From Parcubacteria group bacterium (GTDB lineage: Bacteria; Patescibacteriota; Minisyncoccia; JACQLN01), in contig JACPHE010000003.1 in NCBI GenBank assembly GCA_016188765.1, positions 1 through 25,081 on the forward strand: a DNA stretch of 25,081 bases. Reading direction: 5' to 3'. Position 1 is the stretch's first letter, and each line of letters starts with the position of its first letter. The translations under genes and the position numbers were made by a program. The notes under the pieces are model-generated. The model searched no databases, was not told the origin of the DNA, and was given only the letters and a program-made list of their open reading frames with translations. Positions 11,654 through 12,543 of this stretch are shown here, one piece after another.

Positions 11654-11681
11654 TTGACAGGATTTATGGATATGCTATACT
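11654..11681 (+). promoter_or_regulatory. Strong sigma70-type promoter
   Basis: TTGACA (11654-11659), 16-nt spacer, extended -10 TGcTATACT (11673-11681). Confidence 0.8.
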
Positions 11682-11813
11682 GGAAATATAGTTCTTAAAC
11701 ATCGGGGGAATAAACAAACCGGAATTGCCCAATGACCTTAACGGGTCGCAGAATGGGCGGTTCCACTCTTTGCGGCACATTTGGTAAAAATTGCCGCAGA
11801 AAGGAGTAGAAAT

Positions 11814-11969
11814 ATGAGGGTTCAGATGCAGCACCAGAAGCTCGTTGCCGGTATGGCCACCCAATTGAGATGGTCCGAAGACCAGGCCAACGACGGCATG
11901 AGCGACATCCTGATGGTGGACATCTCCACGGGGGCCCTGGTCGGCCGTATGGTCAACGCCAGAAGCTGA
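11814..11969 (+). CDS. Small hypothetical protein, 51 aa (MRVQMQHQKLVAG...RMVNARS)
   Basis: SD AAAGGAG upstream of ATG 11814. Only 8 of 51 codons end in A/T, unlike flanking genes. Confidence 0.6.
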   Translation: MRVQMQHQKLVAGMATQLRWSEDQANDGMSDILMVDISTGALVGRMVNARS

Positions 11970-12512
11970 TCTGGGTCGGACGGCGGCTATCGCCATGGGT
12001 GGCGAGGATATGGATGGATGGGGGCGAGAAGCGGCCCTCCGGCGGAGGTGCCCCGCTAAGCGGGGCGAACAAGCGGGCAGGCATCCTGGCCTGGGCCCGC
12101 AGGCGTCTTGCTGGAAAACTGGCTTTCTGCCAAAGAGAGGAGGTGTAGAATGCTTTTCCAGCAGCTTAGTTCAACCTATGGGTAGCGCGACTACCCATCG
12201 CCGCGTCAAATGCGGCGTTTATCCCACCCCCTAAAAAGTTTTTTCTTTCTGGGAAGCCGTTTTAGATCCGGCCCTTGGTAAATCCGTTCCGAAGGTTGGG
12301 ATTTTGGAACCCAACCTCGGCAGATGTAAGGATTACTAAGCGGCCTCGTTGGCCTGTAGGGAAACTATTTCCGGAATACTTTCCCCCGGCTTCCCAGCTT
12401 GCCTCGGCGATTACGACTTCTTATAACAGAGGTCCCCGTCAGGCAGGCGCCTCGCGGATGGGCTGGGAGCGGCGCCGCGCGCCGCCCCACCATCCGGGAG
12501 TAGTTGTTCTTT

Positions 12513-12543
12513 AAACCTCGGCAAGCGCTTGTCGAGGTTTTTT
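12513..12543 (+). terminator. Intrinsic terminator
   Basis: AAACCTCGGCAAG-CG-CTTGTCGAGGTTT followed by a T run. Confidence 0.8.

Follow-up and report, generated by a model that had tools for sequence, protein, structure and literature searches.

What is made from the roughly 860 nucleotides (nt) that follow lepA in a Parcubacteria group bacterium, where a promoter and a terminator enclose one short open reading frame (ORF) and a dense series of predicted stems? The element lies on the plus strand at positions 11654-12543 of a 25,081-nt stretch of DNA (assembly GCA_016188765.1, contig JACPHE010000003.1, positions 1 to 25,081), which has been analysed as a whole and is referred to here as the window. 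An earlier note, made from the letters of the window, had left two possibilities, either an undescribed, large and structured non-coding RNA (ncRNA) or a structured mRNA subject to control of its translation. The mRNA branch is found to fit best, given the codon-position signal of the ORF and a conserved hairpin around its Shine-Dalgarno (SD) sequence, and the ncRNA branch may still apply to the tail, which shows no codon periodicity, matches no known family and has a few helices that covary between genera. Our preferred reading, to which we give a probability of about one half, is that of a small-protein mRNA or dual-function RNA with an occluded ribosome-binding site in a conserved hairpin and a long structured tail. 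It is supported by the transcription and translation signals, the coding signature of the ORF (ORF1), the conservation of the locus in one family, and substitutions that leave the pairing intact in the leader and the 3′-domain stems.

Signals, composition and fold stability of the unit

The boundaries of the unit are given by two predicted signals:
11654-11681, plus strand: sigma-70-type promoter, with a −35 TTGACA, a 16-nt spacer and an extended −10 TGcTATACT
12513-12543, plus strand: intrinsic terminator, with 12 pairs at 12513-12540 followed by a T-run

From the promoter scan, it is clear that this is the sole strong plus-strand match in 11000-13000 (TTGACA-16 nt-TATACT with TG before the −10, 11 of 12 matches), and transcription is predicted to start near 11688. 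Both signals had been proposed before, and both were recovered by the scans. Taken together, they predict one transcription unit at 11654-12543, of about 860 nt from promoter to terminator, that starts near 11688, ends at 12543 and lies downstream of lepA.

The unit had also been described as GC-rich and densely structured, and both descriptions hold. Its GC content (11688-12543) is 0.568, or 57%, versus 0.451, or 45%, for the window. All eleven arm pairs named previously occur where they had been placed, and the predicted transcript has a minimum free energy (MFE) of −382 kcal/mol, corresponding to a z-score of −8.9 against dinucleotide-preserving shuffles; the reverse complement, treated in the same way, gives −6.8. 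When the first 12.9 kb of the window (1-12900) were scanned in 300-nt windows as a local control, 11701-12600 stood out (z −4.7, −2.9 and −6.8). The only other outlier region was that of the RNase P RNA at 4501-5400 (z −3.2 to −7.4), and a single lepA window, 9601-9900, reached −4.5. A search for internal repeats or a mobile element found the interior of the unit (11690-12510) to be single-copy in the 503-kb genome, and in the DNA sequencing runs the unit is present as one contig without variants.

A related leader is also present in run X1, where a 400-nt contig of 5.7x depth matches window positions 11648-11806 with 10 differences in 159 nt (94% identical). This contig points to a variant of the leader carried by a close relative, at strain or species level, within that groundwater sample.

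Distribution of the unit in one family

The element had been called an orphan, which did not hold up once relatives were searched. A BLAST search of the unit against 60 relatives returned one real homologue, in genome G003 from another genus of the same family, which is 75% identical over the promoter, the leader and the first ORF codons; leader pairs are kept in it, some of them through compensatory changes. The G003 unit is about 900 nt long from promoter to terminator, is likewise GC-rich, and folds with a z-score of −8.3 against shuffles. It sits after secY, not lepA, which in that genome is directly followed by a convergent gene. In addition, a promoter block of 28-36 nt, spacer included, recurs in a sister genus (g2) in front of other GC-rich units. 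We call these type B, and the two sequences from the window and G003 type A.

Type-B units of 500-900 nt, promoter to terminator, are found directly downstream of lepA and on the same strand in seven species (G001, G004, G005, G006, G008, G009 (tblastn) and G010). Over the 11 species of the family, the unit is therefore at the lepA position in 8 and relocated in one (G003), and in the remaining two the contig ends at lepA (G002 and G007). Five genomes from four other families (f2 twice, f3, f4 and f5) have protein genes directly after lepA, without the unit. By these comparisons, the lepA-downstream unit is a specific feature of one Parcubacteria family.

Types A and B share no alignable sequence outside the promoter. 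What they have in common is position, promoter and layout: a long 5′ hairpin, an SD (GAAAGGAG[G]), an AUG and a short ORF, and then a GC-rich body that contains a GGAGG-AUG mini-ORF module; farther downstream, a CU-rich block with complementarity to the SD is followed by hairpins and the terminator. Both of the diverged tails compared stay at 53-57% GC in genomes of about 45% GC, and tail length ranges from 315 to 608 nt across the units.

Further type-A homologues were sought in two ways. With the leader as BLAST query, G003 was the only match among 400 genomes of the class, and the invariant leader motif of 17-20 nt was met in the genome_contigs and metagenome_contigs sets only in the G003 organism (L023 and L027). 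Matches to this motif in viral_contigs were rejected as chance 15-mers. A scan for the sister-genus CU-rich block gave more than 120 matches, mostly chance polypyrimidine.

ORF1 is very probably a real gene

11814-11969, plus strand: ORF1, 51 codons plus stop, encoding a small protein without relatives; annotated by NCBI from the fifth codon as a 47-residue hypothetical protein

The 156-nt ORF that had been judged credible carries a clear coding signature, with GC contents of 0.57, 0.39 and 0.84 at the first, second and third codon positions (GC1, GC2 and GC3; p = 1.7e-5). The same pattern is seen in ORF1 of five other units (G003, G004, G008, G009 and G010), so that GC3 is 0.79-0.89 in six units with GC2 lower, as compared to a GC3 of 0.495 ± 0.068 and a maximum of 0.75 among ORFs of at least 150 residues in the genome. 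The first ~20 residues correspond between the window and G003 (M-x-V-x-MQHQ-[KR]...[LV]A-x-x-AT-x-L). Four residues are identical within the A-x-x-A-T-x-L stretch, of which three are encoded by different synonymous codons in the two sequences, which also differ there by an indel of two codons. The indels between the ORF1 sequences of G004 and G008 measure 3, 3, 3 and 30 nt. The SD and the AUG are conserved in all units compared. These signatures make ORF1 very probably a real gene.

The product itself is polar or mixed in sequence, without any transmembrane-like stretch, and it resembles nothing in the collections searched: the exact-sequence cluster look-up held only ORF1 itself, a word-indexed search of 5.8 billion clusters gave no other match, and Pfam (E ⩽ 1), NCBIfam and the ESM Atlas gave none. 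A phmmer search of 1.84 billion representatives returned only FG-GAP/VCBS repeat proteins, aligned to residues 13-49, with scores that are sums of ~25-bit repeats. An FG-GAP/VCBS identity has been rejected, as ORF1 gives no match to the FG-GAP models of Pfam and its G003 orthologue is without the motif. Since single stretches reach only ~25 bits and the motif is absent from that orthologue, the resemblance is probably due to chance or very remote.

Two other ORFs of the genome, on contig C43 (3722-4408, plus strand) and contig C25 (1-528, minus strand), also have an unusually high GC3 for this genome (0.75 and 0.70, respectively), and each follows a near-consensus promoter and a strong SD. Such a GC3 may be a sign of very high expression or of recent acquisition in this organism.

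The leader hairpins and the predicted occlusion of the SD

Two hairpins are predicted between the transcription start and ORF1:
11721-11764, plus strand: leader hairpin 1, with an outer 11-bp stem (two U.G pairs), an inner GACC/GGUC stem and an invariant UUAACGGGUCGCAGAA loop or bulge
11765-11808, plus strand: leader hairpin 2, in which the anti-SD ACUCUUU (11765-11771) and a GCGGC stem pair the SD region AAAGGAG (11800-11806)

Comparison of the window with G003 shows that 17 pairs of hairpin 1 are kept, with five one-sided changes and one compensatory change, and that 10 pairs of hairpin 2 are kept, with one G-C to C-G swap. RNAalifold places 36 pairs in the two leaders, of which none is broken, seven to eight differ on one side (G-C/G-U/A-U transitions) and three differ on both sides (A-U to G-C, G-C to C-G and U-A to C-G). 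All of the leader cells (100%) are paired in this structure, as against 35-56% with slid partners.

The SD core has a pairing probability of 0.8-1.0 in the full-length ensemble, with the AUG open. The SD is predicted to be paired in all eight full-length units, by the local element in the window and by the distal CU-rich block in most type-B units, and the sister genus uses a different leader hairpin. The SD duplex energies are no better than those of shuffles in most single cases. A long-range closure suggested previously, between 11704-11715 and 12217-12231, can form as a duplex (−16 kcal/mol); in the MFE fold the 5′ tail is not paired with 12217-12231, which is not its best partner either, and the closure is therefore possible only.

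The structured tail

The part downstream of ORF1, about 540-570 nt or two thirds of the unit, is predicted to be non-coding and holds the following features:
11970-12248, plus strand: central GC-rich chain of short, mostly perfect hairpins, with stems verified and no codon periodicity
12110-12118/12154-12162, plus strand: helix enclosing a conserved GA(R)AGGAGGUG motif
12150-12185, plus strand: 11-codon mini-ORF within the central chain
12243-12251, plus strand: distal CU-rich element UUCUUUCUG, complementary to the SD region CAGAAAGGA (11798-11806)
12249-12397, plus strand: multibranch 3′ domain, closed by an 11-bp stem CUGGGAAGCCG/CGGCUUCCCAG and present in both MFE folds (window and G003)
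12398-12512, plus strand: two further hairpin domains, including CGGAUGG/CCAUCCG (12455-12496) around a GC-rich stem

In a sliding-window analysis, codon periodicity is seen in ORF1 only; it is absent beyond unit position ~330, and the other units likewise have none in their tails. In tblastx, the window and G003 are similar in all six frames, and only over nt 1-190, as expected of conservation at the nucleotide level. A protein-coding origin of the whole unit, as a pseudogene or a recoded gene, has been rejected on the lack of periodicity in the tail, the lack of protein-like tblastx similarity beyond nt 190, and the lack of Pfam matches for the other ORFs.

Outside the leader and a few motifs, the tail cannot be aligned even between genera of the family. 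The motifs are the 12110/12154 helix with its GA(R)AGGAGGUG, a GGGUAGC motif and the C-rich block at 12217-12231, all of which stand at matching positions in G003 with other hairpins inserted between them. The region of this helix surrounds a GGAGGUG that recurs between genera. The closing stem of the 3′ domain and its next helix (AUCC/GGAU versus GUCC/GGAC) are also kept in G003, with one compensatory change each; 12398-12512 has no alignable counterpart there. The element UUCUUUCUG is conserved in G003 and is the counterpart of CCUCC-R-CCUCCUUUCUUUG in the sister genus, a nearly invariant, non-coding sequence that forms the most invariant block of type B. This distal block is the best or the MFE partner of the SD in sister-genus units, whereas the window prefers its local anti-SD. 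Four species with type-B units have a domain of 57-132 nt that is bounded by a GGACGAGG/CCUCGUCC helix.

Two sister-genus units also contain a 10-codon mini-ORF, MPLGANPPFG, identical in G005 (L008 1390-1419, minus strand) and G010 (L074 2338-2367). Its DNA differs at four sites between the two, all of them synonymous third positions, and G005, which has lost the first ORF by deletion, has its leader SD joined to this mini-ORF. This pattern suggests a translated micro-peptide, possibly a proline-rich stalling leader.

Relation to known RNA families

The earlier note had recognised no RNA family in the unit, and the Rfam searches bear this out. At gathering thresholds, Rfam 15 (covering OLE, GOLLD, ROOL, HEARO, raiA, riboswitches, group I and II introns, 6S RNA, signal recognition particle (SRP) RNA, transfer-messenger RNA (tmRNA) and RNase P RNA, among other families) gave no match anywhere in the window, nor in any of 12 related loci. 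Relaxing the limit to E ⩽ 10 added nothing on the unit but terminator or palindrome matches at 12510-12612, all far below threshold. The tRNA/tmRNA scan of the related loci found none, and in the literature searched no large RNA has been described for Patescibacteria or the candidate phyla radiation (CPR). The unit belongs to none of the known families tested.

A divergent housekeeping RNA was considered and rejected, with the RNase P RNA found at window positions 4897-5269 (64 bits) and the tmRNA on contig C11 (124 bits). The SRP and 6S models have no match genome-wide and no sub-threshold match on the unit. The RNase P RNA, which carries a fold-stability signal of its own, reaches no more than 64 bits with RF00010, whose gathering score is 100; such a low score fits a previous reading of this RNA as interrupted by insertions.

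Proposed mode of action and points against it

In the preferred reading, the transcript would be the mRNA of a fast-evolving 51-residue protein together with about 570 nt of stable non-coding structure. Its 5′ leader would form two conserved hairpins, the second of which pairs the anti-SD at 11765-11771 with the ribosome-binding site. Since the SD would be held by the anti-SD, translation of ORF1 would need the leader to open, through refolding or melting caused by a factor, a ligand or temperature. The GC-rich tail, as a chain of domains, would offer a second, distal CU-rich anti-SD at 12243-12251. Most likely it stabilises the transcript and helps to set the on/off balance of ORF1, and it may also act in trans, like the structured body of RNAIII-type dual-function RNAs.

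A number of observations weigh against this reading. Transcription and the transcript ends are only predicted, the sequence being found in DNA runs and in no listed RNA-seq run. ORF1 is weakly conserved beyond its first ~20 residues, varies in length from 33 to 57 residues, is frame-broken in G001 and is deleted in G005; because of this poor conservation, this length variation and these two losses, the ORF1 protein may be dispensable. The shuffle control of the leader covariation is weak, with the observed value equalled or exceeded in 54 of 500 shuffles, and the two sequences that gave the structure are also those used to test it, these being the only type-A sequences; the covariation is supportive, not decisive. 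Homology between types A and B would rest on position, promoter, layout and short motifs. The minus strand folds with z-scores almost equally low, and the tail has many hairpins that are perfect Watson-Crick palindromes and vary from one species to the next, in a genome that also inserts palindromes into genes and rnpB. Because of these species-specific palindromes, the folding of both strands and the insertions elsewhere, part of the stem density may reflect tolerated hairpin insertions, not one designed fold.

The flanks of the unit indeed confirm that palindromic elements are active here:
11513-11579, no strand assigned: dispersed palindromic repeat between the lepA stop and the promoter, in the flank and outside the transcript, with at least 10 partial copies on other contigs
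12552-12597, no strand assigned: palindromic repeat after the terminator, in the flank, with a second copy on contig C36 and raised metagenome depth

The metagenome word depth at 11513-11579 is 1300-4200 as compared to 59 for the unit, and the Logan and metagenome contigs end at these two repeats. A purely neutral tail is nevertheless opposed by three observations: no interior hairpin has another copy in the genome, every species has a GC-rich tail, and some helices are conserved between genera.

Alternative explanations

The non-coding tail could instead be the point of the transcript, in which case the unit would be a large structured ncRNA (a scaffold, a sponge, or a ribosome- or SD-binding RNA) and ORF1 and the mini-ORF would be incidental or serve to load ribosomes. 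Its core would consist of the SD-like GGAGG elements, the CCUCC.CCUCCUUUCUU and UUCUUUCUG elements that resemble the 3′ end of 16S rRNA, and the conserved helices. The tail does make up two thirds of the unit and is GC-rich and structured in all nine units, the most invariant block of the sister genus is the non-coding CCUCC-R-CCUCCUUUCUUUG, and helices that close variable domains recur with covariation. Moreover, the ORF1 peptide is barely conserved, and G005 and G001, in which ORF1 is lost or frame-broken, keep promoter, tail and terminator. However, the codon-position signal of ORF1 in six units is hard to explain without selection at the level of translation, the SD and AUG are conserved everywhere, and the tail is unalignable between genera outside the leader and a few motifs, whereas OLE, GOLLD, ROOL and RNase P RNAs keep conserved cores. 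We regard this ncRNA, and the core just described, as a doubtful alternative that still deserves serious attention. The opposite view, that of an ordinary highly expressed small-protein gene whose functionless 3′ untranslated region collects the GC-rich hairpin and palindrome insertions of the lineage, seems to us unlikely. It would account for hairpins that are mostly perfect and species-specific, for the spread of tail lengths, for palindromic repeats on both sides of the unit and for two strands that fold almost equally well. Two differences from G003 agree with it too: at the site of one small hairpin of the window, G003 carries a perfect 10-bp palindrome instead, and the CGCCGC-GUCAAAU-GCGGCG hairpin of the window, which the earlier note had likened to a hairpin in rnpB, stands at a place taken by 10 other bases in G003. 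It does not account for the absence of other genomic copies of any interior hairpin, for a GC-rich tail of several hundred nt in every species when genomes of 0.5-0.8 Mb otherwise have short spacers, or for the conservation between genera of the 3′ domain closing stems, the GGAGGUG helix and the CU-rich block.

Two further explanations have been considered and are both very improbable. A toxin-antitoxin system of type I, similar to hok, would have its toxic peptide mRNA silenced by SD occlusion and by 5′-3′ fold-back, and a small ORF, together with the predictions of a very stable mRNA, an occluded SD and, for sister-genus units, long-range SD pairing, would agree with this. But ORF1 does not encode a hydrophobic membrane peptide, no antisense promoter lies in or near the leader (the scan found no minus-strand promoter-like site inside 11654-12543), the unit has 2-4 times the length of known type I toxin mRNAs, and the locus is single-copy and syntenic, not mobile and multi-copy. 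We give just as little credit to decaying, horizontally acquired GC-rich DNA, for example a fragment of an FG-GAP gene with ORF1 as its last open piece. The foreign look of GC and GC3 and the weak multi-repeat phmmer matches of residues 13-49 to FG-GAP/VCBS proteins would fit such an origin, yet each matching stretch, at ~25 bits, is not significant for a library of that size, the Pfam FG-GAP models do not match and G003 lacks the motif. A decayed gene is also at odds with a tail that has neither protein-level conservation in tblastx nor codon periodicity, and with promoter, SD, terminator and position being kept in nine species.

Beyond the preferred reading of the single unit, the lepA-downstream units of the family might together form a new class of large dual-function RNA, in which an abundant, very stable transcript carries one or more small ORFs and its SD-like and 16S-3′-end-like elements (CCUCC..CCUCCUUUCUU and UUCUUUCUG) work on other molecules than their own transcript, such as 30S subunits or the SDs of other mRNAs that they would titrate, in bacteria with very few classical regulators. 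This is a speculative proposal, and on balance we think it rather unlikely to be right.

Other units that share the promoter block

The promoter block TTGACAGGATTTrTGGrTATGCTATACTGG is found with its spacer kept in three genera (window 11654-11689, L003, L005, L007, L010, L013, L014 and contig C25, L063). It precedes several kinds of unit: besides those downstream of lepA, there are a few small protein genes and a second unit that looks non-coding. The conservation of the spacer suggests either a bound regulator or a copied promoter module.

The second unit, strongly promoted, terminator-ended and 330-600 nt long, is present on the minus strand of contig C25 (L063) and at L010, L013, L003 and L005. 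It has no convincing ORF and no Rfam match, and it adjoins the same convergent, pth-like gene in G000, G006 and G007. Because the Rfam models find neither RNA in the genome, it may be a divergent SRP RNA or 6S RNA, or else another novel RNA.

Implications and comparison with known systems

CPR genomes of 0.5-0.8 Mb have almost no spare DNA and few known regulators, and still this family keeps a unit of 500-900 nt behind one of its strongest promoters, two thirds of it non-coding, GC-rich and without any known RNA or protein family. It is a bounded candidate for studies of small proteins and of RNA-based control in uncultured, ultra-small groundwater bacteria, and its leader, with the anti-SD at 11765-11771 set against the SD at 11800-11806, is a directly testable switch. 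If the tail is functional, it would be among the first large structured RNAs specific to CPR; if it consists only of tolerated hairpins, it would show how palindrome invasion inflates RNA genes, as had been proposed for rnpB in the earlier note.

Among large structured RNAs, OLE, GOLLD, ROOL, HEARO and raiA are similar to the unit in their length of 500-900 nt, in a GC-rich, dense structure within an AT-richer genome, and in having their own promoter and terminator. Those RNAs, however, keep conserved cores and many covarying helices and have no coding ORF, whereas the unit is alignable only in its leader and a few motifs, holds a coding-like ORF, and is matched by no covariance model even at E ⩽ 10. 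The hok/Sok systems are comparable in the occlusion of the SD of a small ORF, which for the unit is a prediction and in the sister genus would involve an element near the 3′ end of the same RNA; they differ in that the unit has no antisense promoter and no hydrophobic peptide, is much longer, and is a chromosomal, syntenic, single-copy locus.

The leader on its own is similar to riboswitch or RNA-thermometer leaders, with its length of ~125 nt, loop nucleotides that do not vary, stems that covary and a last helix in which the SD is predicted to be paired. In contrast to these, it has no Rfam riboswitch match, is represented by two sequences only, is replaced by another hairpin in the sister genus, and has neighbours that suggest no ligand.

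With RNAIII (hld) of Staphylococcus, SR1 and SgrS, the unit would share the plan of a strongly expressed transcript of several hundred nt that carries a short ORF among many hairpins. Further parallels to RNAIII-type RNAs would be a variable middle between conserved ends, the loss of the ORF from some species, and C/U-rich single-stranded motifs complementary to SDs; here, the CU-rich motifs (12243-12251 and the block of the sister genus) also pair in cis. One hallmark of dual function, a translated small ORF in a structured RNA, is indicated at the level of sequence signatures only, by the GC signal in six ORF1s, the strong SD with its AUG and the z-score of −8.9 for the full transcript. The differences are that the unit has no sequence or Rfam relationship to these RNAs, is longer (~860 nt), and belongs to a Parcubacteria family and not to Firmicutes or Proteobacteria. 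By analogy, its closest functional counterparts would be RNAIII-type dual-function RNAs, together with leaders that sequester the SD.

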